The notes under the pieces are model-generated. The model did no database searches and had not been told where the DNA came from. It saw only the letters and a program-made list of their open reading frames with translations. Of a stretch of 64,000 nt of DNA, positions 15,429-45,509 are shown one piece after another (within the stretch, counting starts at the first letter, position 1; every line of letters begins with the position of its first letter). Both the position numbers and the translations under genes were made by a program. This DNA comes from a virus: the UHGV virus genome UHGV-0279745. One strand, given 5' to 3'.

Positions 15429-17138
15429 ATGTACGAATTCCACATGACCTTTACGAGTATGGGCGTGAGGGTCGAAGTCCCTTGTCGACCTATAGAGTCG
15501 GCAATCCTAAAGTGGGCAGAAGAGAATATGCACGCCCCGAAAATGGGCAAACAATACGGAAGAATCATCACCGAACGTGGCGATCCGTATTACGCGCATA
15601 TACCTTCTATCCGTACCTTTATATTCCACCGGAATTTTTCCGAACGTTTACGAATCATTATTAACCGAACGGCCGCTGAGTTTGCAATTGACTTTAAACT
15701 CTACGAGCACCACTTAACCCAGGGAACACCTTACCGCTGTACGTTTGAAAACTACGGCTTTAACATGATAGAAGAAGATGAGTCGTCACGCTTCTTTTAT
15801 CAGAATGGCGTTGTAGAAACAGCGTGCCAGCCTAACCGCTTACAAACCATCTTTGAGATTGGTACAGGGATGGGTAAGTCGAAGACGAACATGAAAGTGA
15901 TGGTTCGTAAAGGGGTAAGAACGTTATTGATTCATCGTCCCACGTACATCTCTAAATGGTTATTCGACTTAACGGAAGATCCTACTGGACTTCGTGAATC
16001 GAAAGAGGACGTCTTGGTTATACAGGGCGTACAAGCGGTCTACGAAGCGCTAGAAATGGGTGAAAGTGGTGAGTTGGATAAACGTGGCATCAAAGTTATT
16101 ATCGTCTCTACAGTGACGTTACAGCGGTTTTTGAAAGAATATATCAACACCGCTGCGACTAACCCGGTGAACATCGATGATTTCTATAACACGCTAGGTG
16201 TTGGGTTCTTATCGATGGATGAAGTGCACGAACATTTCCACTTGGTGTACATGGCTGGAATTATGTTGAATCCGCCGCCCTCTGTTGAGATGTCAGCCAC
16301 ACTCCAACCGGGTGAATCGAAAGCGTTCTTGGCAGAACGGTATAAAGAACGTTTCCCACAAGAGGCACGTATCACCATTCCGATTATTCCTGCGGTACAC
16401 GTGAAAGCGTTGTATTACCGAATTGAGAATAAACGGTTTGCGTGGTGGGCAACGAAGATGACCCCGTATAACCACAAACTGTTTGAAGGGAAGCTGATTA
16501 GCGAAAACCTTCATCAGTCGTACGCGGATATGGTCTGGGATGTAATAGAACGGACGTATCTGGCAGGCTATCAACCTGGTCAGAAAGTGTTGGTGTTGTT
16601 TGCAACTGTCGCAATGTGTGAGTTCTTTACGGATTACGTGCGAGAGAAGCTTACACAATCTGATAAGTTCCATGCGTTGATGGTTGCGAAATATAACGCA
16701 GGGGATTCGTATGACGACTTTATTCAAGCGGATTTCTCTATATCAACACCAGGGAAAGCAGGTACTGCGGTTGACAAACCGGGGTTGGTGCACATGTACA
16801 TTACTACCCCTGTGGAAGACCAGCAGTTAAACCGCCAGATGGCCGGACGCCCACGTAAGATTCTCCACAACGACTGGGGTGAACTCGATCCCGTTGTGTG
16901 GTTATTCCATTCTTATTCGATACCGAAGCATTGCAATTACTTGAATGCGCGTCAAAAATCACTGAGTGATTCTGTGTTGTCGTTTAAGATAGCCACCTCA
17001 CCGTATATTGTAAGGAAAGCTGATGTTACTACCGCCGCAGCCAACAGAGCCAACCGCGCCGTATGCCGGTCTGAACTTAGCAAGTTTTCTCGAAAAAGTT
17101 TTAAAGGCGTATCCCGACGTTTTAGACGTCGTAAATAA
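15429..17138 (+). CDS. SF2 DExH-box helicase
   Basis: Walker A GTGMGKSKT; motif II MDEVHE; motif VI-like QMAGRPRK. The last ~40 codons are Arg-rich and overlap the next ORF. Confidence 0.7.
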   Translation: MYEFHMTFTSMGVRVEVPCRPIESAILKWAEENMHAPKMGKQYGRIITERGDPYYAHIPSIRTFIFHRNFSERLRIIINRTAAEFAIDFKLYEHHLTQGTPYRCTFENYGFNMIEEDESSRFFYQNGVVETACQPNRLQTIFEIGTGMGKSKTNMKVMVRKGVRTLLIHRPTYISKWLFDLTEDPTGLRESKEDVLVIQGVQAVYEALEMGESGELDKRGIKVIIVSTVTLQRFLKEYINTAATNPVNIDDFYNTLGVGFLSMDEVHEHFHLVYMAGIMLNPPPSVEMSATLQPGESKAFLAERYKERFPQEARITIPIIPAVHVKALYYRIENKRFAWWATKMTPYNHKLFEGKLISENLHQSYADMVWDVIERTYLAGYQPGQKVLVLFATVAMCEFFTDYVREKLTQSDKFHALMVAKYNAGDSYDDFIQADFSISTPGKAGTAVDKPGLVHMYITTPVEDQQLNRQMAGRPRKILHNDWGELDPVVWLFHSYSIPKHCNYLNARQKSLSDSVLSFKIATSPYIVRKADVTTAAANRANRAVCRSELSKFSRKSFKGVSRRFRRRK

Positions 17139-20506: not shown

Positions 20507-21361
20507 ATGATTGACATTTATACCGATTACGCTGCCGTTCTTACCGTCAATCGTGCGGAAGAACGTGCTGCGCCTTTCCTGGACTTAGTAACGCTGTGTA
20601 TGGATTACGGTTACGATGTTGCGTTAAGCGATGTGTATTGGCAACCGTCGTCTGATCCTGCCGACGAAACCGTAAGACTGGAAGGGATTATTGTAAAATG
20701 TGCCGTGGCGTTAGGCAACCGTTTAGGCGTTGCTTTAAACCCACAAGAAGTTTTCCGTAAACCGAAAGAGACCGTACGTATTCTGGATGGTATTACGTCT
20801 AAATTCGAAGAGTTCGAAGACACCGATACGCTATACGGTCTCGTGATGTCTGGAGAGACGCCAGAGTTTATCCTGGAAAGTATCTGCCGTTACGTATACG
20901 GCGATGACAATATCCATTTTGAAGATTTGGTCATTCGTGTTTCACCCCGTGTAATGACGGTGATGCGTAACTATCTCTCGGCTATGGTTGTGGATGAACA
21001 ACTCGCAGTAGGTAACGATGCGCGTCTGACACGTATTGCAGAATACTTGCGCCTTTATCCGCAAAACCCTTCTGCGTTCGTATTCCTAAACTTACCTGAA
21101 GATCCTGATTTGACGGTTGTTCAACAATCGTTAGTGTTTGACGTCGAAGATTACAGCGAAACAGAATTACTCGAGATGTATACGGTAGGGCTTTCGATTA
21201 TCGATAACGATGACTTTGATGACGCGTATGCCGATCTTTCGACGAACTTAGAGAAACTTAATAATGATGGGTTACAACCCATTACTGTTTTACAACCTGC
21301 ATTAAAAAGCCTACGGCTGATTTATCAGGTTGAGGAGGCAGAGCACGATGACGAGGTTTGA
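20507..21361 (+). CDS. hypothetical protein
   Basis: Start placed at ATG 20507 with RBS AAAAGG; the track's start at 20495 is TTG. Confidence 0.55.
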   Translation: MIDIYTDYAAVLTVNRAEERAAPFLDLVTLCMDYGYDVALSDVYWQPSSDPADETVRLEGIIVKCAVALGNRLGVALNPQEVFRKPKETVRILDGITSKFEEFEDTDTLYGLVMSGETPEFILESICRYVYGDDNIHFEDLVIRVSPRVMTVMRNYLSAMVVDEQLAVGNDARLTRIAEYLRLYPQNPSAFVFLNLPEDPDLTVVQQSLVFDVEDYSETELLEMYTVGLSIIDNDDFDDAYADLSTNLEKLNNDGLQPITVLQPALKSLRLIYQVEEAEHDDEV

Positions 21362-22649
21362 GTTCTTAGTAGCGGCATGTAAAGCTGAAGCGTGGCGACG
21401 TCTGGTTTGGCGTATTGCTATTTTTAACATGTCGGTGTTTCCAACAGGACGCGAAGAACCCGAAGCGTTTGATATAACGTATATCGACGGCTTACCGCAT
21501 TATTACGCTGTAGAAGACGGTAAGGGCAGTTGGGAACCGATTACTGACGGCGTAAAGGACCAGGAGCTGTTTGTCCCTGAAGAACAGTTCGAGCTACGCC
21601 CTGACGATTATCCCGGTTTAGACGGTCCTATTCCCACGACAGTAGGACGATACGTTTTTAACTGGATTGTTATCTGGTATGCATTTGGTACACGCTTACC
21701 CTATCTGGCGATTTCACAAAACCCGTTGGAATATCGCAAAGAGATGCATCGGCGTTGTTTAGACCATGAAACCGATGAGCCAGAAAACGAAGGTGCAATT
21801 CGACCGAGTATGATTGAGCGCTTTGTAAGCGGCTTACACGAGCTCGCACCGCTCACGTCAGGTATTGCACCAACCGGTACGTTACGAAGCCTCACGGTGC
21901 ATCCTGATGCGTATAAAATACGTGATGCGTTGCTATTAAAGCATAAGGACGAGTTAGACGATCCTGCCGTTATCGTTAAGATTGAAAAAGCGCTGGATGA
22001 GTTAGACAAAGAGTGGTTGTCGGGTGACCAATCTATTGAGTTTTATAACTCGCCGAAATCGCGGATGCGCCGACGTAAATTAATGCTGATGTACGGTATT
22101 GAATCGTCTTTTCAGGAAGGGGGTCATTATACGCTCATCCCGAACGCATTAGTTGAAGTTGATAAAGCGGGGATGGAAAACCTGGTTGCGAAATTTAACT
22201 CTATCCGTGAAGGTTCGTTCTCTCGTGGTGCGGAAACAGCGAAAGGGGGTGAGCAGGTACGTATTATCCAGATGATTTTCCAGAACCACCGAATCGTCCC
22301 TGGTGACTGTGGAACGAAACTAACGTATCCAGTTGTGATTACCGATGATAACGTAAAACGTTACGTTGGGATGAACGCGATGGTTAATGGTAAACTGACA
22401 CCACTGACTGAGGAATATTTAAAACAGCAGTTAGGTAAAGTGGTGCGGTTACGCCGACCCATCTTATGTCAGTATGGCCACATCGACACCTGCACAGCGT
22501 GTTCGTCTGCGAATAAAGGGGAAGAACCTCGCGCAATCGCTGCGGATATATCCTCGGCGTTCTCTAACGTTATGTCCGTGGCAATGGCCGCGATGCACGG
22601 TAAAGAGACAGTGGTACACGAATTTAATCCATCGATCCACATTACGTAA
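21348..22649 (+). CDS. hypothetical protein
   Basis: Start placed at ATG 21348 with RBS GAGGAGG; overlaps the preceding stop. Confidence 0.55.
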   Translation: MTRFEFLVAACKAEAWRRLVWRIAIFNMSVFPTGREEPEAFDITYIDGLPHYYAVEDGKGSWEPITDGVKDQELFVPEEQFELRPDDYPGLDGPIPTTVGRYVFNWIVIWYAFGTRLPYLAISQNPLEYRKEMHRRCLDHETDEPENEGAIRPSMIERFVSGLHELAPLTSGIAPTGTLRSLTVHPDAYKIRDALLLKHKDELDDPAVIVKIEKALDELDKEWLSGDQSIEFYNSPKSRMRRRKLMLMYGIESSFQEGGHYTLIPNALVEVDKAGMENLVAKFNSIREGSFSRGAETAKGGEQVRIIQMIFQNHRIVPGDCGTKLTYPVVITDDNVKRYVGMNAMVNGKLTPLTEEYLKQQLGKVVRLRRPILCQYGHIDTCTACSSANKGEEPRAIAADISSAFSNVMSVAMAAMHGKETVVHEFNPSIHIT

Positions 22650-22662
22650 GGATTATTAGCCA

Positions 22663-23172
22663 ATGGCAACTAAAGATATTTCGACACAAGATGAACGCCC
22701 ATCAGCGGTAAGACGCGCTGAGGAAAATGCGGTAACTTACAGTCAGGATGATGCGTACCAGGTGCGGCTTATTGCTACTCAGCTCGATGAGGCTGGCGGG
22801 GCAATTAGCCAAAATAAACCGAAAGATACCCCAGAAGCTGACGACGCTTTCCGTAAGCTGCATCAATCGTTCCGCACGTTATTTGAACTACGTGGTCAAG
22901 CATTCATTGATGCGTTCAACGTGTTCGTTGAAGCTGCAATTAAACACAAACGTGGTATCTTCTACTATCCGAATGTGAACTACCATTTGGATTGGTTTTA
23001 CGATTCCGCTGAACGTGAAACATACGTCGTGTTTATCAATATGTTAGTACGTTTCGCAAATTCTCAGGATAAAGCAAACTTTGCTCAGCGTGACAACGTT
23101 GGACGTTTGGTACAACGTGTGACTGATCCAGAACTGCAACACTTACTGGCTTACTGCTTCAACGCGGCATAA
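22663..23172 (+). CDS. hypothetical protein
   Basis: 169-aa ORF, followed by the terminator at 23176-23220. Confidence 0.5.
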   Translation: MATKDISTQDERPSAVRRAEENAVTYSQDDAYQVRLIATQLDEAGGAISQNKPKDTPEADDAFRKLHQSFRTLFELRGQAFIDAFNVFVEAAIKHKRGIFYYPNVNYHLDWFYDSAERETYVVFINMLVRFANSQDKANFAQRDNVGRLVQRVTDPELQHLLAYCFNAA

Positions 23173-23175
23173 AAG

Positions 23176-23220
23176 TATTACCCTACTCCCGAAGGAGTAG
23201 GGTAACGTTTATTTTTTTTT
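23176..23220. terminator. bidirectional terminator hairpin (12-bp stem TTACCCTACTCC)
   Basis: Stem 23178-23189 / 23194-23205, flanked by an A-run and a T-run; lies between convergent genes. Confidence 0.65.
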
Positions 23221-25000
23221 ACTTTGCAGCTTTGATGTATTCAAAAGGATCGGTAATTGTTTCTCCTTGTCTACGTAGAAAAGCTTCTAAGACGTCATTT
23301 TTATCGGGCAACAGGAAGAAATCTGTCGCGATTTCCATTGCATTGACTCGCCCCGCAGTAAGGTTAATACCGACACGACGCCGAACCTCTTCAGGAACAC
23401 CATGAATGCTCAGTAGCTCGATTAACGTTGTTTCACGAGACTGGTTCATCATGTTCGTTGCAGATGGGTATGCCTGGGTTAAGTCAGCATCTGCAGTTTG
23501 CCCACGGAAAGCCGTGTAGAAATCATCAACTTCCTTGATGATGTTTCGTAGCCCATTCTCTGCGTTCATACACGCAGTCAATGTAACAATCCAACCATCC
23601 GTCCCAATGACTTCATTGTCGAAATCGTTACGCATCGCGCTACCCACACAACCGATAACCAGGCCCTGTTCATAGAGGTAATACGTGTATGCAATACAGA
23701 TTCGCTTCGGTAGAGAAGGGAAAATATCATACATCGAATAACCCGCCAAAACTGAAATAGCAGAAGACAGATCGTTCGTCTTTTTATCGAGCAGAACAAT
23801 CATCAAGTTATCGAAGATGTTATAAACGCAGTATTCTAACGGGAAATCCTTCTGCGCCTTTAAGTGCCATTCCAACTTTTCCTCGTAGGGCAGTTCCGGT
23901 AAGTCCAACTTGTTTAAACCCAACTCGGTTTCCAGTATCGCGTTAAGTTTGTAAGAGGGGCGTTGTCCCTCGTGTACACGCAATGAACGGAATAGACACA
24001 TTGCATCTACACAGTAGAATGACGCCGTACAATAAAGAATGTGCCACTGTTGCGAAGGCGCTTTTGTTAATGACTTTGATTCTGTTTTCTTCGATGCTTC
24101 GTCTTTCTTAAAGTAGACACGACGGTACTGTTTTGGCACGTCAGGATGACAGAAGACGTCTTCCGGTGGAATCCCCGCAGCTTCTAAAGCTTCCAACATA
24201 CGTGAAATATCGAACTCGTGGTTCCATGCGACGAGTAAGTCAGGAAGCCGAGGATGAATTTCTTCAAACATCCGTTGAATGCAACAACCTGAATTGAGGC
24301 ATTCGTAAACGAAGATTTTGTAACCATCGATAACGTTTTTGTATTTAACGATGGGGTTGTCGTTCTCGTCTTTTCCACGAAAAGCGATTTTAGAAAGCAA
24401 TTCTTGAGCACGTTTGACGAGTCGTGCTTCAAAGTTTTCACGTCCGCAACGGGTGACGTAGTCTTTCGTAGCAAAGAAATGAATTTCGTCGTCTAAAACA
24501 AAACTCATAATCCAGGGGTCTCGAGACTTATCTTCTTCTCGAGTTTCCACGTCGTATACACAGATACGGTTAGGAGAAACGGCATTAGGCCATTTACGCA
24601 TGTACTTTTCTTTAATCCAGCTAGTAATGGGCAAATCAGCCCAGTAAACATACGGTGAAGTACAAACCTGACGGAGCGGTTTCTTTTTATCGGGAAAACG
24701 AATCCCCAGACCCATCTGTATGGTTGAGGACATCATTACATCCGTTGTTAAATATTCCTGGCACTTACTACGTTCTTCGTATTCTTTCTTTTCCTTGTGG
24801 TTACGATGCTGTGGTAAAGTAATGTAGATGGGCCGTTTCAGATTTTCACGCATGACAATTCGTGGGATATATCTGCCATCTTTAGTATGGACGACCTCCT
24901 TTATGAGCACGAAGTCGTTTTCTTTCTGCTGATCGGTTGCGTAAGAAACAAACTTGCACTCCTTGGCAATAACGTCTTCCGGTGCGTAATAGTTATTCAT
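23219..25000 (-). CDS. DNA polymerase family-B-like protein, 3'-5' exonuclease module
   Basis: Exo I ICVYDVETRE, Exo II VAWNHEFD and Exo III YCVYNIFD in canonical order; possible motif-A-like MYDIFPSLP. Start placed at the Met of MNNYYAPED (24998-25000) because the longer track ORF would overlap the divergent gene. Confidence 0.6.
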   Translation of the reverse strand: MNNYYAPEDVIAKECKFVSYATDQQKENDFVLIKEVVHTKDGRYIPRIVMRENLKRPIYITLPQHRNHKEKKEYEERSKCQEYLTTDVMMSSTIQMGLGIRFPDKKKPLRQVCTSPYVYWADLPITSWIKEKYMRKWPNAVSPNRICVYDVETREEDKSRDPWIMSFVLDDEIHFFATKDYVTRCGRENFEARLVKRAQELLSKIAFRGKDENDNPIVKYKNVIDGYKIFVYECLNSGCCIQRMFEEIHPRLPDLLVAWNHEFDISRMLEALEAAGIPPEDVFCHPDVPKQYRRVYFKKDEASKKTESKSLTKAPSQQWHILYCTASFYCVDAMCLFRSLRVHEGQRPSYKLNAILETELGLNKLDLPELPYEEKLEWHLKAQKDFPLEYCVYNIFDNLMIVLLDKKTNDLSSAISVLAGYSMYDIFPSLPKRICIAYTYYLYEQGLVIGCVGSAMRNDFDNEVIGTDGWIVTLTACMNAENGLRNIIKEVDDFYTAFRGQTADADLTQAYPSATNMMNQSRETTLIELLSIHGVPEEVRRRVGINLTAGRVNAMEIATDFFLLPDKNDVLEAFLRRQGETITDPFEYIKAAK

Positions 25001-25071
25001 GATTTCACTCTCAAATCTAGCGGCTGCTATACTGATTTGTGGGTAATGTAATTTCTCAAAAGGAAACACAA

Positions 25072-26406
25072 ATGGGATATTGGCAAAATCACATTGCATC
25101 AGTTGCGGATGCAAAGGTTGTAGCCGCAGAATCGATTAAATTCCAAGACAAAAAGAAGCTGGCAGAATTGGCTGATGTTATTGCTAAGTTTCGTGGGGCA
25201 GGCGATTTCAGTCCTGCAGGCTACGAAAGTGCCGGGGTTTCGGATTGGGTATTTAAGAATATCGGCATTACGATTCACTTTAAGAACGGTAGCGAACTGG
25301 GTCTTGTTGACGTTGCTTTTGCAGGCGTAGAACCACCGAAATTGGATGCAAACAGTCCAATCATTGCATCGATGACTCGCGCACTGTACGCAGGTAACAA
25401 AGACCTGGATATGTACAGTAAGTTCATCAAAGAAAATGAACTGAACACATCTATCGATGACAGCAGTGCAAAAATCAGTGGCGATTTAAGCAAAGTGGGT
25501 TCTCCGCTTTATCTTACCCCGGTGCTGCTGGAAAAATTAAATTTGACCGATCTGGAAATCGCCTCGGTGATTCTTCATGAAGTCGGCCACATCTACTATT
25601 ATTTCCGTACGCTAATGCGTACCGTGGTGACTGATTTGCTGGCAGATGCTGCGGCTAACCGCATCATGGAAACAGAGGACCAGACTGTCCGCTTGCGCAT
25701 TGTTAAAGACGTAGAGAAGATGCTGAACACGAAAGTGAATCAGCCAGAGACCATCTGTACCGAGTACAAAAAAGAAAACGTCTACATGCACTTAGTCACG
25801 CAGTTGTTATTAGATCGCCCGTTCATTAGCGGTAGTCAAGGCTTTGCTAACAGAACGTGGGAACGTGCTGCGGACGATTTTGCTTCCCGTTTCGGGGGCG
25901 CTCCTTATCTGGCCTCTGCACTGTATAAAATGGAAACCAGTTCGTTCTATTTGCTGCGGAACTCAGCGTATATGAACATGGGTGTCCATTTGACAGTAGA
26001 ACTTTTCCGCGTGACTGCGCTGATAGTCTCTTCTACGATTCCAATTATTCCAGTGATTTCCGTGACGTTCGGAATGATCTTAAATGACCCGGATAACACC
26101 ATTTACGATCCGCCGCAGCAGCGTTTTGAGGCAATGCGACGTACACTCGTTGAAGAACTCAATACGATTAAAGACAAAAATACGAAGGCGGCTAACGAGC
26201 AACGTAAACGTATTTTAGATGGTATTGCGGTTATTGACAAGTTATTAGAAATCGTAAAAGATAAAGATAACTTGTATCAGTTTATCTGGAATACTTTAAC
26301 GCCGAAGGGTCGTCGCTCACGTGCTGCCGTTGATTACCAGCGTGCGATTGGGAAGTATATGTCGAACGATCTTCGTATTGCTTCAGCCATGTTTAATGTC
26401 GAATAA
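25072..26406 (+). CDS. putative zinc metallopeptidase-like protein (HExxH motif)
   Basis: ILHEVGHIYYY contains the HExxH zincin signature; RBS AAGGA; start placed at the first ATG. Confidence 0.4.
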   Translation: MGYWQNHIASVADAKVVAAESIKFQDKKKLAELADVIAKFRGAGDFSPAGYESAGVSDWVFKNIGITIHFKNGSELGLVDVAFAGVEPPKLDANSPIIASMTRALYAGNKDLDMYSKFIKENELNTSIDDSSAKISGDLSKVGSPLYLTPVLLEKLNLTDLEIASVILHEVGHIYYYFRTLMRTVVTDLLADAAANRIMETEDQTVRLRIVKDVEKMLNTKVNQPETICTEYKKENVYMHLVTQLLLDRPFISGSQGFANRTWERAADDFASRFGGAPYLASALYKMETSSFYLLRNSAYMNMGVHLTVELFRVTALIVSSTIPIIPVISVTFGMILNDPDNTIYDPPQQRFEAMRRTLVEELNTIKDKNTKAANEQRKRILDGIAVIDKLLEIVKDKDNLYQFIWNTLTPKGRRSRAAVDYQRAIGKYMSNDLRIASAMFNVE

Positions 26407-26420
26407 GTAAAGGTAAAATC

Positions 26421-26864
26421 ATGACGCATAAAGTTTCTTTAAATTCCCTGGTTCTGGACTTTAAACGTACGAACGAGGGTAAAGGTGTACAGGCACAACG
26501 CGCACTGACTGGCCTGGTCGCATTCGCATTGGCTTATAATACCGACATGCCCGATAATGGTCCGTTTGGGTCGAATGAAGTGTCGCAGCTAAAGCTTCGC
26601 CCGCTGATGAAAAATGTTGTTTCGGACGTAAACGAGCTTTATTGTGTCGATCTGGGCAGCATTGAAGATTTGACAGTGGCACTGTTTTGTAACCGCTACG
26701 ATAGCGCCTGGGGTGGTCGTCGCGCTATTGAAAACTTCTCTGTCCGTGAGATTTTCAATGAAGCCTTGGGCGACGATGTATGGGATACCGTTAATCTGTG
26801 GCTGGAACGTTTCATGGAAACGGTGAAATTCTATATGGAAGAAACGCGAGGCGAGCTGGTATGA
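26421..26864 (+). CDS. hypothetical protein
   Basis: 147-aa ORF with RBS AAGG. Confidence 0.55.
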   Translation: MTHKVSLNSLVLDFKRTNEGKGVQAQRALTGLVAFALAYNTDMPDNGPFGSNEVSQLKLRPLMKNVVSDVNELYCVDLGSIEDLTVALFCNRYDSAWGGRRAIENFSVREIFNEALGDDVWDTVNLWLERFMETVKFYMEETRGELV

Positions 26865-28531
26865 GTATGGAGATGACAGCAAACATTGCGCAACCGCAGT
26901 GGAAACTCGATGAACTTCCTGCACTGTTAGAACAGCGCATGGAAGAACGCATCGATTCTGTTAGCCAACTCAATCTCTACATGCAACGAAATGAAGCAGA
27001 CCTGATTTACGGTTCTCGCCTTATCGCGCAAATTGAAGCGATCTTACGGGAAATACGTAATGCAGGGTTGAACCGTGATGTTGCTGTAGCGACTGAATCG
27101 TTGCGTCCTGGCACAATCCCGAAGGCGGTACAAAGTGTCCTGACGTCGAATTATTCCAAAACACACCAGAAAGAAACGGTGGTGGCATTAGAGTCTTACG
27201 CCAATTTTGGTAAGATTAGCCTTATCGTGATGGTGATGATGGGGATAATGAAAATCCTCAGTTGGATTATCAGCAACGCCGTTCCTTTTGCAGGTGCTGC
27301 GAATATTGACGGGAACGACTATCGCGAGAAACTGGAAGAGAAGTTGGCCGATGTTCCTTTCACAGAGCGCCTGAAAACAACCGTACTGAAAGAAGTTTAT
27401 CTGGTACTGTCAAAAGGTTTGAAAGACAGCGAGTTAAGCAACCTGGAGTTATCTCTTTCGCTGGCTGACGACGTTTTTGTGAACATGGAAGCTGAAGAGT
27501 TTCTAAATAAACTCGCCGCTGCGTTAGGTAAATCACCGTTTATCGATACGTTTAAGAACCATCTTAAACGTCGGCAGAATGAGCTGCAGGTTATTCAGGA
27601 TCTGCTCGATACGCTGCTTCGGACGAATATCGGCTACGGTGTATTTGACTTCGGGGTTGCTGAGGAAGTCTATAACGGTTTGCCGCCTGATGTAAAACGT
27701 GCTGGAGTGAACATTCCGTCAGATATTCAGTTCAACTTAATGAGCACGCTTCTTGACAGTTTTGCCGGTGCGCTTCAGGACTTAGACCAGTCGCTGAAAG
27801 ACATCAAAACCTATTACCTGTCGAATAATCCGAAGGTAGGCACATCGCAAGAGAACCAAGTTGCCGCTGTGCATCTGGTTCGTGCGTTAGGCGAGATCAA
27901 TGGCCGAATTGAATATACTGCCACGGAATTTGGACGACAGAAAGGTAGCCCGGGTCCAATTTTGCGTGTAAAAGACAAGGTTGAGCTTCTCGGCTATACC
28001 ACACGTGAATTAGACAACGGTTGGATGATTGCGTCGATCGGTGCTAACTCTTTCTTTGGCTCCACAACAAACCTGGAGATGATGCGCCAGGAGTTGAGCT
28101 TAAGTAACGGGGATTACCGTGAGCTGTTGGCATGTCTGATTACACTGGCACGTAGTGGTATCTCGGATGGTGTAGCGAACACCGCGCTAGACAAGTATAA
28201 GGTGTTGGAGAAACGTGTCGATCAGGTTGTAAAAACCCTGAAAGATATGGCACGTCAATCACGTTCTGGCGTCGACAGTCAGAAATGGCAGGCGATGGAA
28301 CAGGCGTTTAAAGACCAAGTGACGCGAGGGGAAAACTTTAACCTTCACGGTCGTGAACTGACCACGATGATGGTGTTAAACCCTGACCGTAATGTCTGGG
28401 ATTCTGTTGCGCACAGTGCAAACATGATTAACATGTGGTGCAAGGCCGCAGGGTCTATGGCAACGGTGTTGAAGCGTGCCAAGTCCAACCCACTTGTGAA
28501 AGGTGGGAAGTTCAATAAATTGATCGATTAA
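26861..28531 (+). CDS. hypothetical protein (possible transmembrane segment)
   Basis: Start placed at ATG 26861, overlapping the upstream stop; hydrophobic stretch ISLIVMVMMGIMKILSWIISNAV. Confidence 0.55.
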   Translation: MSMEMTANIAQPQWKLDELPALLEQRMEERIDSVSQLNLYMQRNEADLIYGSRLIAQIEAILREIRNAGLNRDVAVATESLRPGTIPKAVQSVLTSNYSKTHQKETVVALESYANFGKISLIVMVMMGIMKILSWIISNAVPFAGAANIDGNDYREKLEEKLADVPFTERLKTTVLKEVYLVLSKGLKDSELSNLELSLSLADDVFVNMEAEEFLNKLAAALGKSPFIDTFKNHLKRRQNELQVIQDLLDTLLRTNIGYGVFDFGVAEEVYNGLPPDVKRAGVNIPSDIQFNLMSTLLDSFAGALQDLDQSLKDIKTYYLSNNPKVGTSQENQVAAVHLVRALGEINGRIEYTATEFGRQKGSPGPILRVKDKVELLGYTTRELDNGWMIASIGANSFFGSTTNLEMMRQELSLSNGDYRELLACLITLARSGISDGVANTALDKYKVLEKRVDQVVKTLKDMARQSRSGVDSQKWQAMEQAFKDQVTRGENFNLHGRELTTMMVLNPDRNVWDSVAHSANMINMWCKAAGSMATVLKRAKSNPLVKGGKFNKLID

Positions 28532-28535
28532 AAAA

Positions 28536-28580
28536 GATTACCCTACTCCCGGAGGAGTAGGGTAACTTTTATTATTTTTT
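28536..28580. terminator. bidirectional terminator hairpin (same 12-bp stem as 23176-23220)
   Basis: Stem TTACCCTACTCC / GGAGTAGGGTAA at 28538-28549 / 28554-28565, followed by a T-run; lies between convergent genes. Confidence 0.65.
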
Positions 28581-28581
28581 C

Positions 28582-31536
28582 TTAATCGGCGGTAGTATCG
28601 TGACGGTTATAAACAATCACGATATCGTCTTTAAGTCCGATGTCGCCGCTGGCCTCAATGTCCAGCTTTTTACCTATAGTTGCTCTTGATGCTTCCGAAA
28701 CAACGGTAAAGAGACGCATGTCTTTATCTGGTCCCATAGCATCGAGTTCAACACCGATAATAGACGCATCGAGGGTTTCACTCAACGCATTACCGATTTC
28801 TGTTGCAGAGATCGTTAGATGACTACCCAAGTAATCATTGATAACCTGAGACGTTTTCTTACGAATCTGCGTTAAGAGCTCGGTGTTATTACGGTTAGCA
28901 GCTGTTAGGTAATAACGCACGGTGAACTGGTTTTCCGCAGGGACAGGCGTTACTACCCCGTCCTCGGTACGGGCGTCGATATACCCCATTGTTGTAATCG
29001 GCACAAAGTAACCTTCGGTACGTTCTAACAACATAGGTTTCAAAGTCGGAAGTATTACCGTAACGTAGTTAACGATGTTTTCGATAACTTCATTCAGATA
29101 CGATTTTGCAGAAGGTGTCGTCGCGAATTTATATCGCGCATCGAATACCGCCATCTCACTACGGAATTTGATAGAACGCGATTTCGCAATCTTCGGATTG
29201 CCGAATTCGTCTTTAACTAAGTCTCCTTCACGATGTAGGACGATCTGTTGTCCAGCCTCGTCGAGTTTTGGATCACCTTTACGATGCTCGTACGTAATCT
29301 GAAGTGGTGGCGTGCGACCTGCGTCGTAGGTGTAGATTGGTACACCGTTCTCATCGCGTTTAACCACATCGATTTCCCACGTTGCCATCACGTCTTTTTC
29401 GTAATACTGGTAGTTAATGCTGTCAGTAACAGCACGCGCTTTACGCCAGTAGTACGTCATTGCTTTACCCAATTCGATTTTGAAAATCTCGTGAGTAATA
29501 CCAATCGCATCGCGTGACGGGGCAGTGATTAACGCATCCATTTCCGCACGTTCGTAATTACCAGGATAATAACCGGTGCAGCCGTAGAACAGGTTGAAGT
29601 CCGTCATCAGCGGTACAGGCGTTTCCGTGGGTGTGCTACTACTAATGCGTGTATTCGTTAGCATTAATTCGTCGTTACGGTCAACGTCTAGGTTGGTTTC
29701 CAGCAGGAATTCCCAAACGCGTTCACTACCCTGTTTACCGACTAACGTACCGTTGATATACGCTAAAGTGTTGTCTGCGTTACGTGGACGGAACGATAGC
29801 TGTGCAAAAACTTGATCGTCGGTCAGTGCTTGATAAGGTGCTTCTGACTTCGTTACGGTGCGCAATACGTAACCTGCTTCGGTCTTTTCGATAGTGTAGT
29901 CGGCTGTTACCACACTGAGTTCCGTGCTTACGTTAGTGGCAATAAAGCGTTTGGAGTTTAACGTCGGTTTATCTAATTGATAAATACGAACGTCAATGGC
30001 TTTGTTGTTGATATCCACAACGTAATGGAATGGTGTAAAGAGATAACGATTAGCGTTGGCCGCGTTAATCAAATCTTCTTTACGCATGGTTTTTGCCAAG
30101 ACCGTCATCTCCGCATCAACCGTCAGGCTGGTGTCGGTGAACCGATAAAGTGTGTCAGGAAGAATCGTCAGGCGATTACCGTTAACCTTTACCGTTGGTA
30201 GATTAACCAATTCATTCCAGGAGAAATAGAACGGTGCCGTGATTGTCCCGATGGGAGAACTGACATTAGGAATTGTCGATTCGAGCATCGGTGCCGTTAA
30301 GAAGTAAGTACGGCTAGTAACATAGTCGTTTGGTTTCGACAACGTTAGACCGTAGTCAGAAACCGTTGCTTCTAATTGTTTCTCCGTTACAGGGAGTTTT
30401 CGTGCACCTACAGCGTTGTTGACTACACGTGTACGCAAATCTTCGAACGTGAGCTGGCTACGACCACCTGACAACATTTTACCTGCTTTTGCAGCCATCT
30501 GTTTGATGGAAAAACTCTTAATCGGGTTAACGTAGTTTTCGTCGTATTCGCCGTTTAAATCACGCAATGTAAACGTGTATTCGTCAGACGGATAAGCCGA
30601 GATATCGACACTTAAAGGCCCTAAGGTCGTGTAGATATCCATACGAATTTCGCCGCTGACCAAGTTCTTCGCCATGTAGATCGAGGGGATAGTACACCGT
30701 ATAACACCGTCACCGACCTGGATTAACGCGGTTGGGGTGTTGGGGTCGTAAACGTCACGACTGTGCGTATGCTGAATTTCAACCCACTTGTTATCGTTGG
30801 TTGATTTCATCCACACCCTTACGTAGAAAAATTTGTTAGTGTAATGGCGGGTCATGACAAAGGTATTTTTCCCCGCAACGGTGTCACTTTCGTTCTTCAC
30901 CGCATACTGCATAACCGGGATATGGATTGCCAGTAGTTGCGAGGCCGTGGTGTTAGACGACGTCAACTCCCAATCCAGCGCATTCGTCGACACAGGAGAA
31001 ATAGGTGACTGTGTTTCGGTAATCCAAAGAACCTGAAACGCTGGGTTTTCATTGGTGCCGTAAGGAAGTACCCTGATTTCAATCGGGTACTGGATGGCAA
31101 AGGTGTAACCTGACACCGTGAAAACTGTGTCACGTGGGATAACAACCTTACGCACACCCGCAATCTGTAAAGGGTACGCCTTAGAGATTAAACTATCAAC
31201 ATCGATTAATAACAACAGCTCGGTGGTTGAAGGTTGGGCGAACACATCAACGTAGTCCACATCGGACATATGTCGGAACAGGTCGTCGTACGTTTGTGCC
31301 ATCGATGGAAATGTCTTTGGCACTGATTCTTGCAACCCCATAAGCGTTGCATGGCCCAACATTGTCCCCATTTCCGCCAAATAAACAACAGGGTCTGTTG
31401 GGTCACGTAGCACTATTTGGCCTTCGGCGTCTTCTACATCCAGAAGCTGATTCAAGAGCAGTGTTTGCATCGCTGCCGGATGGTGGGCAAACAACAATAT
31501 GTTCTTTGCCAAAGTATCGTAAGTCGTAGAACTCAT
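28582..31536 (-). CDS. hypothetical large protein (possible virion structural protein)
   Basis: 984-aa ORF on the minus strand, translationally coupled to the upstream minus gene. Confidence 0.6.
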   Translation of the reverse strand: MSSTTYDTLAKNILLFAHHPAAMQTLLLNQLLDVEDAEGQIVLRDPTDPVVYLAEMGTMLGHATLMGLQESVPKTFPSMAQTYDDLFRHMSDVDYVDVFAQPSTTELLLLIDVDSLISKAYPLQIAGVRKVVIPRDTVFTVSGYTFAIQYPIEIRVLPYGTNENPAFQVLWITETQSPISPVSTNALDWELTSSNTTASQLLAIHIPVMQYAVKNESDTVAGKNTFVMTRHYTNKFFYVRVWMKSTNDNKWVEIQHTHSRDVYDPNTPTALIQVGDGVIRCTIPSIYMAKNLVSGEIRMDIYTTLGPLSVDISAYPSDEYTFTLRDLNGEYDENYVNPIKSFSIKQMAAKAGKMLSGGRSQLTFEDLRTRVVNNAVGARKLPVTEKQLEATVSDYGLTLSKPNDYVTSRTYFLTAPMLESTIPNVSSPIGTITAPFYFSWNELVNLPTVKVNGNRLTILPDTLYRFTDTSLTVDAEMTVLAKTMRKEDLINAANANRYLFTPFHYVVDINNKAIDVRIYQLDKPTLNSKRFIATNVSTELSVVTADYTIEKTEAGYVLRTVTKSEAPYQALTDDQVFAQLSFRPRNADNTLAYINGTLVGKQGSERVWEFLLETNLDVDRNDELMLTNTRISSSTPTETPVPLMTDFNLFYGCTGYYPGNYERAEMDALITAPSRDAIGITHEIFKIELGKAMTYYWRKARAVTDSINYQYYEKDVMATWEIDVVKRDENGVPIYTYDAGRTPPLQITYEHRKGDPKLDEAGQQIVLHREGDLVKDEFGNPKIAKSRSIKFRSEMAVFDARYKFATTPSAKSYLNEVIENIVNYVTVILPTLKPMLLERTEGYFVPITTMGYIDARTEDGVVTPVPAENQFTVRYYLTAANRNNTELLTQIRKKTSQVINDYLGSHLTISATEIGNALSETLDASIIGVELDAMGPDKDMRLFTVVSEASRATIGKKLDIEASGDIGLKDDIVIVYNRHDTTAD

Positions 31537-42298: not shown

Positions 42299-43649
42299 TA
42301 AACCGTCTTCTTTCGAACCGGTGGAACGCCCGATCCCTGAGTTGAATAAACCACAAGACGGTGTGAAAGAAACCACGAACGTGGTGACACAACCGACACG
42401 TACAACGGTGACGGATTTAGAGCGTATACCGAAACAGTACCTGATGAAGTACCTGGAAGGGTCTTCCTGGACAGTGGATTTCTTTAATTTCCTGAAAGGG
42501 CGTAATGACGCGAAGAAATTCTTCGATTCGAAGGTACTTACGCCTGACCAGCAAGTAGAGAAAATCATCGGGTTAGAATTGCGGGTTACCACACCGTTAG
42601 ATCGTTCTCAGGATACAACGAACAAAACGTTCACCATGTCTGGTGCCGCAACAATGGCGAACTCGGTGATTCCCAACGAAGGGTGTTTTTTCGTTGCCCC
42701 GATTGGAGACGGACGGTTCGCGTTGTTCAATGTCACGAACGTCGTGCGGATGTCCAATAACAAAATTGCAACGTATAACATTGAATATACGCTGCTGTTT
42801 GAAGTTGATCCAGAAGTTGCAGAAACCATTCGCCGGTGTACGGTCCGTGAGTATTATTACGTTTCTGAACGTGCCTGGACGGGCGGTGATACGTTACTGA
42901 CACCGAAAGAATATCGTGCGTTTTTGAAGGTCGTTGATGCGATTGCAGACATTGAACAGACTTACGTAAAACGGTTTTACGATGGGGAAACGGCAACGTT
43001 GCTTTTCCCGCACGATCGGCACAGCGATGGGTTGCGTAGCCGTGCGTACTACGATGTGTTCTTAGCACAGTTCGTACGCTCTGTAGGCTTACGCACTGTT
43101 GGTAAAGATATTCAAATCTATCCACACCCGCCAATGCGTGTGGAAGATATTGAAACGGTCTGGACAGCGTTGTTAAATCAATCGCCAACGTTCTTAGCGG
43201 ATTACAAACGTGATTCTAGTGTCTGGCAGGTAAAAACCTTCCGTACGATGCAGCATCGAAATTCTGTGACCTGGTCATTAATTTCGGATACCAGATTCTT
43301 TACCGATGAATTAAAACCGGGCTATGGGATGGCGCAACGTTTCCCTGGACAGTGGCCGAAGTGGACGGAGTTTGAACCGGTTGAAGTGGAGAACTATCGG
43401 GGTAATGAAGGTGAATCAATCCCTGCATTTCTACCACTGACTTACGAACCGTATTTGTTAAGCCCAACGTTCTACGAGGGCTCGTACAGTTCGTTATTAG
43501 AATACGGTTTATATCTCTATCTGAATAAACGCCCACTGTCAACGGTAATTGCATTACGGTTGTTTGAAGAAGTTTACCGTTTGCCAAAGGATGCGCAGTT
43601 CTACTATATTCCGATGGTGTATTTGTTGTTACGGTATGCGAGGGATTAA
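42279..43649 (+). CDS. hypothetical protein
   Basis: 456-aa ORF; RBS GAGGAACAGAGA; overlaps the upstream gene. Confidence 0.6.
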   Translation: MLKAKRDKPSSFEPVERPIPELNKPQDGVKETTNVVTQPTRTTVTDLERIPKQYLMKYLEGSSWTVDFFNFLKGRNDAKKFFDSKVLTPDQQVEKIIGLELRVTTPLDRSQDTTNKTFTMSGAATMANSVIPNEGCFFVAPIGDGRFALFNVTNVVRMSNNKIATYNIEYTLLFEVDPEVAETIRRCTVREYYYVSERAWTGGDTLLTPKEYRAFLKVVDAIADIEQTYVKRFYDGETATLLFPHDRHSDGLRSRAYYDVFLAQFVRSVGLRTVGKDIQIYPHPPMRVEDIETVWTALLNQSPTFLADYKRDSSVWQVKTFRTMQHRNSVTWSLISDTRFFTDELKPGYGMAQRFPGQWPKWTEFEPVEVENYRGNEGESIPAFLPLTYEPYLLSPTFYEGSYSSLLEYGLYLYLNKRPLSTVIALRLFEEVYRLPKDAQFYYIPMVYLLLRYARD

Positions 43650-43650
43650 C

Positions 43651-44190
43651 GTGGCTGAAAAACGTAGCGCAGCATTTATGCTGTTTCACAAGTGGGTGGG
43701 GTGGCGTGTCCCTGAATGGACGACGATTTCAACGTACATGTCTCAGGAACATGGGTTGTTCTTACCGGAAGACGAGAAAAAAGCACGCGCGATACTGCTC
43801 AATAAAAAGACTGTATACATGCGACCTTTCGAAGTTGCGGTTTATGCAGAATCAGGCGCAGCATTAGACGTCCACGACCCACATGACGGGATCATCGTGT
43901 ACGGGTATATCATGGAACACTTAGCTGATTGGCTAAATTACATGCAGACCCCACACCTGACAACACGTAAAGTCCCTATGGAGGGCTTGCGTCAGTTTAA
44001 TGCGTTAGCGCGTAAACTGTTCCCGGTAGCGAACCGTTACGGTTACTTTAAGAAACCTGAAGTAACAATGGCGGTTTCCGTACAAGCGTTATTTGGCGAA
44101 GTCCGATTGGAAACAGAACGGCATCAGTTCAACGATACGATTATGCACCGTATTGAACAGATATACCGTAGACGTGGAGGAATTCTGTAA
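43651..44190 (+). CDS. hypothetical protein
   Basis: Start placed at GTG 43651 with RBS GAGGGA; the track's start at 43549 would overlap the upstream gene by 100 nt. Confidence 0.45.
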   Translation: MAEKRSAAFMLFHKWVGWRVPEWTTISTYMSQEHGLFLPEDEKKARAILLNKKTVYMRPFEVAVYAESGAALDVHDPHDGIIVYGYIMEHLADWLNYMQTPHLTTRKVPMEGLRQFNALARKLFPVANRYGYFKKPEVTMAVSVQALFGEVRLETERHQFNDTIMHRIEQIYRRRGGIL

Positions 44191-45509
44191 TGTCGTTTGG
44201 TCGGTTACAGAACATAGCAAACGTGCACATTGCACAAGCGGCGGGATTACCGGCCATCGACTACGTACCCCTTATCACGGTCCGTGGGGTGACGATTGAC
44301 GTTTACAAAACCATGTCGATAATCCATGCCAGTAATTTCGCTCAGGATTTAACGACCATCACGCACCTCAGTGTGGTGATTCCACTGAGCCAGCAACGTA
44401 TTCTTACGTCGTCAGCAGAAGGGGATTTATCAGTTAAAATCCTGATGCGGACAATGAACAAGAAAACCATTGCGCAACTGAACTACCGAGGAATTGTGGT
44501 TAACAACCACGATCCAGATATGGAATCACCTACAATGTTTTTGGGTGAATCTGACCAAAAAGGGTTGGGCGTGGTAACGTTGGAACTGATGGACGAATCG
44601 ATGTGGTTCCTTCGTTGTCGTCAGGTAGGTGGGATTTACCACGAAACCGATGGATTAAGTGTCGTTCGTGCATTACTTGCAGATACGTTACCTACCGGGG
44701 ATGCACCAGAAGGTCAGTTGGTTGGTGTGGAATACGAGGAAGAAGAACAACAGCCTTATCGCGACATTTTGATTCCCGATTCGCAAAGTTTTCTTTCGGT
44801 TTTCGATTTCATTCAGAACCGCTACGGTGTGTATAGCCAAGGATTAGGTGTCTTCTTGTATAAACACCGTTGGCATATCTTTCAACCGTGGGATTCTAAG
44901 AAATTCTCTTCGGCAAAAAAGAAACTGGTGGTAATTAACCTTCCCAGAGAGAAAGTTGCCTATTTAGATAAAACGTGTCACATTGCAGGTGACGTCATTT
45001 ATCTGATTTGTGGTGGCGATGTTCACACCTTCGAAGACAAAGACGCCCTTGCGCTAAATCAGGGAACGGGTTACCGCGTGGGTTCAATCCGTGCCTTAGA
45101 CGGACGTGCAAGTTCTTTCTCTCCAGGCGACGTTTCAGCAACGACGTCAGATTCGTTTGTTTCGGCAGCAGACCCTACACAGTACCCCGGTGGTGTTGTT
45201 AATGCGCCTATTGATCCAAACGAGCACTTCAGCGACACGGATAAGCCTCGTCGTTCTAAGTTGGCTGCCGCCAGAGGGACACTGACCGCAACGACCTGGA
45301 ACCGTTCAGCGTACGGTTTATTGCAGCCGGGTATGGCAGTAAAATATCTGTATGCGAATAATTACGGTGTATACACTCGTTATGGGACGTTGGTTGGTGA
45401 AGTTTTCCAAGCTGCCGTTGACGGTGGTTCGATGGCGTCCCCACAATTTAATACCATTAGTCAATTGACGTTGTGGTTGACTAATGAAAAATTTACAACC
45501 GCTACGTAA
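44190..45509 (+). CDS. hypothetical protein
   Basis: 439-aa ORF; RBS GGAGGA; start overlaps the upstream stop. Confidence 0.6.
   Translation: MSFGRLQNIANVHIAQAAGLPAIDYVPLITVRGVTIDVYKTMSIIHASNFAQDLTTITHLSVVIPLSQQRILTSSAEGDLSVKILMRTMNKKTIAQLNYRGIVVNNHDPDMESPTMFLGESDQKGLGVVTLELMDESMWFLRCRQVGGIYHETDGLSVVRALLADTLPTGDAPEGQLVGVEYEEEEQQPYRDILIPDSQSFLSVFDFIQNRYGVYSQGLGVFLYKHRWHIFQPWDSKKFSSAKKKLVVINLPREKVAYLDKTCHIAGDVIYLICGGDVHTFEDKDALALNQGTGYRVGSIRALDGRASSFSPGDVSATTSDSFVSAADPTQYPGGVVNAPIDPNEHFSDTDKPRRSKLAAARGTLTATTWNRSAYGLLQPGMAVKYLYANNYGVYTRYGTLVGEVFQAAVDGGSMASPQFNTISQLTLWLTNEKFTTAT

Follow-up and report, generated by a model that had tools for sequence, protein, structure and literature searches.

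The gene studied here lies in a stretch of 64,000 nucleotides of the virus genome UHGV-0279745 (hereafter the window, meaning the whole stretch), at positions 25072..26406 on the plus strand. Its 444-amino acid (aa) product is probably an active zinc endo- or oligopeptidase, a divergent M48-like gluzincin, that is carried as capsid cargo. The window comes from a jumbo phage that is phiKZ-like (nucleus-forming, Chimalliviridae-type) and has Salmonella phage SPN3US and Erwinia phage phiEaH2 as relatives. The original prediction had tentatively called the product a zincin-type metallopeptidase on the strength of one HExxH signature. An invariant motif, a predicted third zinc ligand, and profile and fold matches to M48 enzymes now support that call. 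The features of the gene are:

25072..26406, plus strand: coding sequence of the predicted M48-like zinc metallopeptidase, 444 aa, PHROG 2767; ortholog of SPN3US gp45 and phiKZ gp84, and by this orthology packaged in the capsid
25072..25131, plus strand: predicted N-terminal propeptide, aa 1-20, ending V-A-A-E20 at a predicted prohead-protease site; about as long as the T4 capsid-targeting sequence (CTS)
25498..25575, plus strand: edge beta-strand (aa 143-148) with the loop and helix start LLEKLNLTDLEIASVIL, a typical M48 segment that leads into the active-site helix and is aligned by HHalign to HtpX and LoiP
25576..25590, plus strand: HEVGH, aa 169-173, in helix 160-200; two predicted zinc-binding histidines and the putative catalytic Glu170, aligned with HELGH of ZMPSTE24
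25849..25875, plus strand: NRTWERAAD, aa 260-268, an M48-type RxxExxAD on the glutamate helix, with E264 as predicted third zinc ligand and an invariant D268
25978..26082, plus strand: conserved hydrophobic helical hairpin, aa 303-337, with a Kyte-Doolittle 19-aa maximum of 1.96
26104..26124, plus strand: Y345-D346-x-P-x-x-R351 motif right after the hairpin; R351 is invariant, and Y345 and D346 occur in 96-99% of members

The protein contains exactly one HExxH, HEVGH, as had been stated originally. In the open reading frames (ORFs) of the window of at least 150 aa (22,103 aa) 0.58 such motifs are expected by composition, and two were observed. The other one, HEHFH (nt 16227), is found in a 569-aa DNA-helicase ORF (15429..17138, plus strand; phrog_16), and looks fortuitous, in line with the ~0.6 chance occurrences expected. 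When the window protein was shuffled 200,000 times, an HExxH arose in 0.38% of the shuffles, and an HExxH combined with Exx[AS]D at a spacing of 50-140 aa in 0.018%. A lone HExxH is thus not above chance, and it is conservation, together with independent similarity, that carries the case. When 1.84 billion cluster representatives (clusters at 50% identity) were searched exhaustively with a profile, 2,524 members of the family were recovered at E<=1e-3, and 839 at E<=1e-30, almost all of them full-length. A profile re-search with alignment A1 in a 5.8-billion-protein index added one new relative only, due to the word prefilter. In an alignment of 10 sequences, with identities as low as 20%, H169, E170, G172, H173, E264 and D268 were invariant. 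Among 147 representatives with a mean column identity of 25%, these six columns and R351 were the sole invariant ones, and HExGH...ExxxD was found in all full-length representatives of the family. The motif is therefore kept in homologs, and its loss there was one of the outcomes that the original prediction had named as refuting. Against this background, the idea that HEVGH arose by chance in a protein unrelated to zincins, which could draw on the ~0.6 motifs expected and on the second copy in the helicase, is effectively refuted: more than 140 divergent relatives share the motif without exception, another diagnostic motif lies at the right place, and M48 profile and fold matches were obtained independently. 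We give it next to no credence.

The same alignment bears on whether the protein could be a pseudo-enzyme or a purely structural head protein, in which the fold and the metal site are kept for stability or partner binding and no catalysis takes place. The database label 'virion structural protein' is consistent with such a role, as are the lack of any reported activity and a score of the window protein under the Pfam M48 threshold. However, E170, which is dispensable for metal binding, is invariant in 147 of the 147 members, and G172 and D268 are conserved likewise; pseudo-enzymes usually lose such residues. Because the invariant glutamate is the putative catalytic one and not a metal ligand, we consider a pseudo-enzyme improbable.

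A third ligand and a Met-turn had both been reported as not identifiable. The first can now be proposed: the segment N260-R-T-W-E264-R-A-A-D268 (NRTWERAAD), located in model helix 256-288, aligns with SRRFEFQAD of ZMPSTE24 and carries the glutamate of the (S/N)RxxExxAD motif that M48 enzymes have on the helix following the HExxH helix, so that E264 is the predicted ligand. In ZMPSTE24, zinc is bound by H335, H339 and, as the third ligand, E415 of the SRRFEFQAD segment. That no Met-turn is present stands, and it is expected since the protein is M48-like, a gluzincin, and lacks HExxHxxGxxH. A metzincin was considered and rejected: the residues after HEVGH are IYYYFR, which provide neither the G at +3 nor the H at +6, and the predicted third ligand is a Glu.

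Family profiles matched human ZMPSTE24 among the sequences of the Protein Data Bank (PDB) with E=4.7e-4 (10-sequence profile) and E=2.1e-5 (147-sequence profile, A3). In each of the two hits the profile segment T..E.AAIiLHElGH was paired with EEVLAVLGHELGH of ZMPSTE24, and a second segment, RswEqlADqFAaRhGagrdLatAL, ran over the RxxExxAD motif. The A3 profile also matched Ste24p (E=2.7e-3). When the family profile was compared by HHalign with E. coli M48 sequences, probabilities of 83% for HtpX, 85% for LoiP and 46% for BepA were obtained, which are moderate because the targets were single sequences; the stretch aligned comprised the edge strand plus 'LL..xT..E..AxIxHExGH', which is characteristic of M48. 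Profile similarity thus extends to experimentally solved M48 enzymes. A single-sequence search of the PDB sequences with the window protein returned nothing relevant, and an NCBIfam search gave faint HtpX matches (E about 0.03). PHROGs places the protein in phrog_2767, 'unknown function', and the family has no precomputed Pfam domain. Taken together with the predicted fold described below, these comparisons indicate that the window protein is a divergent relative of the M48 peptidases and probably works alike.

The matches also help to judge whether the protein, as a member of the M48-like superfamily, could be a metal-dependent hydrolase of some non-peptide substrate. The part that can be aligned with peptidases is confined to the metal-binding core, and weaker zincin-like matches to SprT-like proteins (2/110 members), Spartan and ArdC were seen, which would fit such an activity. 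The best and only recurrent matches, however, are to the true peptidases ZMPSTE24, Ste24, HtpX, LoiP and BepA, and the substrate-docking edge strand that precedes the HExxH helix is conserved; a non-peptide substrate is therefore very improbable in our judgement.

The structure was predicted twice with AlphaFold2. The first model, from a multiple sequence alignment of 28 sequences, had a predicted local distance difference test (pLDDT) score of 74.8, and the second, from 147 sequences, had a pLDDT of 89.7 and a predicted template modelling (pTM) score of 0.90. The model consists of a five-stranded sheet (aa 67-148), a 40-residue helix that carries HEVGH (160-200), an inserted helical segment (204-253), a long helix with E264 and D268 (256-288), the hydrophobic helical hairpin (303-337) and a C-terminal helical bundle (348-443). 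HEVGH thus lies on an alpha-helix, as in M48 enzymes, and the predicted catalytic fold is of the zincin/M48 type. The hairpin is a general property of the family: a hydrophobic stretch of ~36 aa, located ~144 aa after HExGH, reaches a Kyte-Doolittle 19-aa maximum above 1.6 in 97% of members, with a family mean of 2.2 and a median of 2 charged residues. It may be either a buried core or a membrane-insertion element. The Y-D-x-P-x-x-R motif matches the zinc ligands in conservation and has no alignable counterpart in M48 enzymes; it could provide a set of active-site, oxyanion- or substrate-binding residues, or an autoinhibitory plug.

Packaging in the head is deduced from the orthologs. SPN3US gp45 (43079-44431, 'putative virion structural protein 1') corresponds to the window protein by position and by 70% identity, and phiKZ gp84 (81,963-83,204; ~20% identity) is annotated as 'structural head protein'. 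The head protein gp45 has been shown by mass spectrometry to be cleaved at ASE-20, by the prohead protease gp245 (PMC10052503 Table 2), and it is the sole processed SPN3US head protein with a propeptide as short as the T4 capsid-targeting sequences (PMC5694885). In the window protein the equivalent site reads V-V-A-A-E20|S-I-K-F-Q. E20 is present in 146 of 147 members, within [S/A/G]-x-E|[A/S]-I-x-[F/Y]-Q, so the N-terminus has the form of a CTS-type propeptide, short and ending at a prohead-protease site. Residues 1-20 were of low confidence in both models (pLDDT <60). With good confidence, head packaging and N-terminal maturation would be transferable to the window protein by orthology. This has consequences for the roles that had been suggested for the enzyme. 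A role in virion maturation can be discarded insofar as it means being the maturation protease, given that the known prohead protease has the ortholog among its substrates (PMC10052503). The window protein likewise gave only PHROG 2767 and M48 matches when the prohead maturation protease (MEROPS S80) was considered as a candidate. Lysis, also suggested, found no support, the location being the head. Host takeover, the third suggestion, would fit action after ejection, and this is weighed below against a role within the capsid. Two homologues are labelled in GenBank as 'putative M48 family lipoprotein protease' (Serratia phage Yaphecito) and 'peptidase'. The lipoprotein subtype was rejected for the window protein, which has no lipobox and no signal peptide, has its sole Cys at position 229 and begins with a hydrophilic 20-aa propeptide; the Yaphecito label is therefore half right at best.

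The genes around the peptidase gene give a further indication of its role:

23219..25000, minus strand: DNA-polymerase gene, 593 aa, phrog_3011 (E=8e-251), ortholog of SPN3US gp44 and phiKZ gp83; divergent neighbour
25001..25071, no strand assigned: divergent intergenic region of 71 bp between the DNA-polymerase and peptidase genes; 70 bp in SPN3US
26421..26864, plus strand: downstream gene, 147 aa, phrog_8529, corresponding to SPN3US gp46 and phiKZ gp85; annotated 'structural head protein'
26861..28531, plus strand: gp47-like gene, 556 aa, phrog_8131, corresponding to SPN3US gp47 and phiKZ gp86; ALE-111 site and transmembrane (TM)-like segment at aa 115-141

The divergent arrangement with the polymerase gene agrees with the original description, the two genes being 71 bp apart on opposite strands. 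The three plus-strand genes are closely spaced, with a 14-nt gap followed by an ATGA overlap at 26861-26864. From Salmonella phages to phiKZ the gene order is conserved: DNA polymerase (minus), peptidase (plus), a ~147-aa gene (plus), a gp47/gp86-like gene (plus) and a ~980-aa structural gene (minus). The order gp45-gp46-gp47 is constant in Salmonella, Pseudomonas, Vibrio, Ralstonia and Serratia phages. In SPN3US, gp47 is essential, of low abundance and located in the head; it is processed at ALE-111 and has a predicted TM domain in its mature part. The virions of a gp47 mutant look normal yet are non-infectious. The authors infer that gp47 is ejected, and they equate it with phiKZ gp86 and 201phi2-1 gp148, 'expected to be ejected' (PMC5694885). 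In the gp47-like product of the window ALE-111, a predicted prohead-protease site, is directly followed by the TM-like segment (aa 115-141), as in SPN3US gp47, and therefore cleavage would leave a hydrophobic helix near the new N-terminus.

Gene fusions point in the same direction. In several metagenomic relatives, which are fusion proteins 800-1,450 aa long, the peptidase domain forms the C-terminal part, and in all of them x-E|[A/S/G]-I-x-[F/H]-Q is kept exactly at the junction, so that the prohead protease would release the peptidase domain. The N-terminal part of two fusions, P0084 and P0103, is gp47-like (phrog_8131, E=1.5e-6; phmmer). P0084 is encoded by an uninterrupted ORF on its contig (L016 2846-6466), followed by a gp46-sized gene. 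In the fusions P0061, P0148, P0158, P0149 and P0077 the N-terminal parts had no detectable family, and a Pfam search of the extra parts of the fusion proteins found nothing. In Vibrio phage pVa-21 (L008 1702-6285) gp47-like paralogs flank the peptidase gene on both sides; in some metagenomic phages the upstream gp47-like paralog and the peptidase form an in-frame fusion, with products of 1,200 aa. As a Rosetta-stone type of argument, these arrangements are suggestive of a functional link between the peptidase and the gp47 family.

We propose the following mechanism. H169 and H173 of the active-site helix and E264 of the glutamate helix would hold one Zn2+, E170 would be the general base that activates the zinc-bound water, and the edge strand (aa 143-148) would dock the substrate peptide in extended form. 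The 20-residue propeptide would target the protein to the prohead, where the serine protease (S80-type; SPN3US gp245, phiKZ gp175) would remove it after A-A-E20. The peptidase would then exit the capsid along with the DNA, the TM-bearing ejection protein gp47 encoded nearby and the virion RNA polymerase. Within minutes of the start of infection it would cleave a target located in or close to the inner membrane of the host, with the conserved hydrophobic hairpin as a latent anchor in the membrane. That the protein binds zinc, cleaves peptides, is ejected and associates with membranes is inferred, as is its substrate. Ejection with the DNA followed by early action at or near the inner membrane is favoured because of the CTS-like propeptide, the hydrophobic hairpin and the linkage with gp47, but it is put forward tentatively, at somewhat short of even chances. 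A wider scheme is conceivable, which we regard as rather unlikely: gp45-gp46-gp47 would form a conserved 'first-minute' module of nucleus-forming jumbo phages, made up of three prohead-protease-matured cargo proteins that are ejected with the DNA. The peptidase, through its hairpin, and gp47, through its TM helix, would insert into the host inner membrane or the early, membrane-bound infection vesicle, and the peptidase would cleave a membrane-proximal host or phage protein, which could for example be a defence sensor, the substrate of a membrane protease or a protein ejected along with it that has to be activated.

The same enzyme could instead act inside the maturing capsid, chopping the propeptide and scaffold fragments released by the prohead serine protease so that they can leave the head. 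Its substrates would then be the propeptides of scaffold, inner-body and ejection proteins (111-254 aa), and the loss of its own 20-aa propeptide would activate it, as one step in a cascade of two proteases. The enzyme would be co-packaged with these substrates and is itself processed by the prohead protease, if the orthologs are a guide; the family is universal in phages that show extensive head proteolysis; and M48 enzymes typically act on extended or unfolded peptides. Two observations speak weakly against such a role: SPN3US virions still contain the propeptide of gp47 despite the presence of gp45 (PMC5694885), and all cleavages mapped by mass spectrometry fit the AxE motif of the serine protease, no second specificity having been reported (PMC10052503). 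It also leaves the hydrophobic hairpin, and the linkage or fusion with the TM-bearing gp47 family, unexplained. We consider action inside the capsid less likely than action after ejection.

Several points weigh against an active M48-like cargo peptidase and against its ejection. The window protein itself is under the Pfam Peptidase_M48 gathering threshold (16.6 vs 20.3 bits, E=0.0071), so that its membership in M48 is by transitivity through its relatives. Among these, Peptidase_M48 is the only recurrent Pfam family (5/10 and 40/110 at E<=0.01, best E=3.4e-6), and the best relative is estimated at ~27-28 bits, so that some family members probably pass the cutoff. A Foldseek search of the first model against the PDB found nothing significant, the top match being ZMPSTE24 (E=0.2). 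The spacing from HExxH to the glutamate, 90 aa, is longer than in classical M48 enzymes, and the hydrophobic hairpin may be just the buried core of the helical domain. The SPN3US papers list gp45 only as 'Head, unknown function', outside the named ejection-protein candidates (PMC10052503, PMC5694885). Finally, a protease that shares the capsid with ~50 other proteins needs a latency mechanism, and none was identified.

Turning to the gene boundaries, the longest version of the peptidase ORF starts at GTG 25039 (25039..26406, plus strand, 455 aa), and the version from ATG 25072 encodes 444 aa. Upstream of the ATG the following element was read from the sequence:

25061..25065, plus strand: Shine-Dalgarno-like AGGAA, ~7 nt upstream of ATG 25072

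The N-terminus MGYWQNH of the window protein matches MGHWQKH of SPN3US gp45. ATG 25072 is taken as the genuine start because of the AAGGA 7 nt upstream and of this agreement with orthologs. For the DNA polymerase the longest ORF (23219..25114, minus strand, from TTG 25114) would overlap the 5' end of the peptidase gene; its true start, judged by the PHROG match and by L012, the closest relative, is ATG 25000. For the gp47-like gene the most likely start is ATG 26861, which overlaps the stop of the 147-aa gene (ATGA), rather than at GTG 26798 of the longest ORF. Further upstream, a 439-aa ORF (21330..22649, plus strand) matches a fragment of the beta-subunit of a phage multisubunit RNA polymerase (phrog_2962), and its positional equivalent is SPN3US gp42, a virion RNA polymerase subunit. 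With this gene nearby, the peptidase gene sits within a cluster that encodes capsid-packaged proteins.

The family is widespread. By tblastn the protein was found in 221 phage records, with Erwinia, Pseudomonas, Salmonella, Serratia, Ralstonia, Vibrio, Aeromonas, Klebsiella and others as hosts. At the nucleotide level, Erwinia phages matched at 74-78% over parts of the region, and Cronobacter phage CR5 gave short matches at 81%; no deposited phage genome matched the 5.3-kb region above ~80% nucleotide identity. Assemblies and read sets of Salmonella Enteritidis are the source of the nearest protein, P0001 (91% identity, 384 member sequences), and at its locus L012 (contig of Logan SRR7274982) the gene order is identical to that of window positions 21330..31536. 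The phage may be an undescribed species of the SPN3US/phiEaH2 group that travels with Salmonella cultures. One group of relatives, P0029-P0035 (records of Salmonella phages SPFM1, 7, 8, 9, 10, 12, 15 and 20), had high HMMER scores and only ~5% BLASTP coverage. In P0030, the one sequence inspected, ~20-aa blocks of the gp45 ortholog appear in reverse order, as if lines of 60 nt had been reversed, which looks like a database artefact and not biology.

A search of the accessible literature found no paper that assigns or tests an enzymatic function for the SPN3US gp45/phiKZ gp84 family. The phiKZ structural atlas, the preprint on early phage infection (EPI) vesicles, a paper using size-exclusion chromatography with mass spectrometry and the Juk paper make no mention of gp84, and text matches for 'gp84' and 'gp146' referred to other phages or proteins. 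The text of the core-genome paper carries no statement on whether the gene is core. The M48 or peptidase idea is not new, given the two GenBank records already so labelled, and the chemistry is of a known kind, that of M48-like gluzincins. What is distinctive is the setting: an M48-like enzyme, packaged in the capsid and matured by the prohead protease as judged by orthology, with its own domain architecture, near-universal in phiKZ-like phages and linked or fused to a TM-bearing ejection protein. These phages package and eject dozens of capsid proteins of unknown function. A predicted catalytic site (H169, E170, H173 and E264) on a near-universal cargo protein makes the role of such proteins in the first minutes, before the phage nucleus forms, accessible to point mutants, using SPN3US and phiKZ genetics. 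The family, with more than 2,500 clusters at 50% identity, is flagged here as a distinct capsid-borne branch of M48-like peptidases. If the enzyme acted only inside the capsid, it would be a second protease in giant-phage head maturation; if the 'first-minute' module were real, it would be a metalloprotease effector that is injected, and chimallivirus infection would have a universal early step that can be targeted. The finding should be moderately interesting to jumbo-phage biologists and will hardly surprise protease specialists.

Among known systems, SPN3US gp45 and phiKZ gp84 (PHROG 2767) are full-length orthologs with an identical arrangement of flanking genes and the same [S/A]-x-E site near residue 20, and no structural difference from the window protein was noted. 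Compared with the M48 family (PF01435; Ste24/ZMPSTE24, HtpX, BepA, LoiP and Oma1), the window protein has 90 aa between the two motifs, an inserted helical segment, and additional regions at both ends, alpha/beta at the N-terminus and a helical bundle at the C-terminus. In place of the 4-7 TM helices of HtpX and Ste24 it has one hydrophobic hairpin after the glutamate helix, and by orthology it would be a virion cargo with a propeptide cleaved by the prohead protease. The minigluzincins (proabylysin and projannalysin) are stand-alone archaeal proteins of ~100 aa, whereas the phage protein, with 444 aa, has more domains and an N-terminal propeptide; minigluzincin latency comes from the protein's own C-terminal tail. 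The jumbo-phage prohead protease (MEROPS S80: phiKZ gp175, SPN3US gp245) is likewise a protease in the prohead. It belongs to another catalytic class and fold and cuts after AxE/SxE, and the ortholog of the window protein is its substrate, not its homologue. With the T4 internal head proteins that carry a CTS (IPI-III and Alt) there is no sequence relationship, and these are an ADP-ribosyltransferase or anti-restriction proteins in contrast to a putative zinc peptidase. The likeness lies in the short N-terminal propeptide that is removed by the prohead protease, and T4 Alt provides a precedent for a head-packaged enzyme that is injected with the DNA. The propeptide length of gp45 has been set directly against that of the T4 CTS (PMC5694885).

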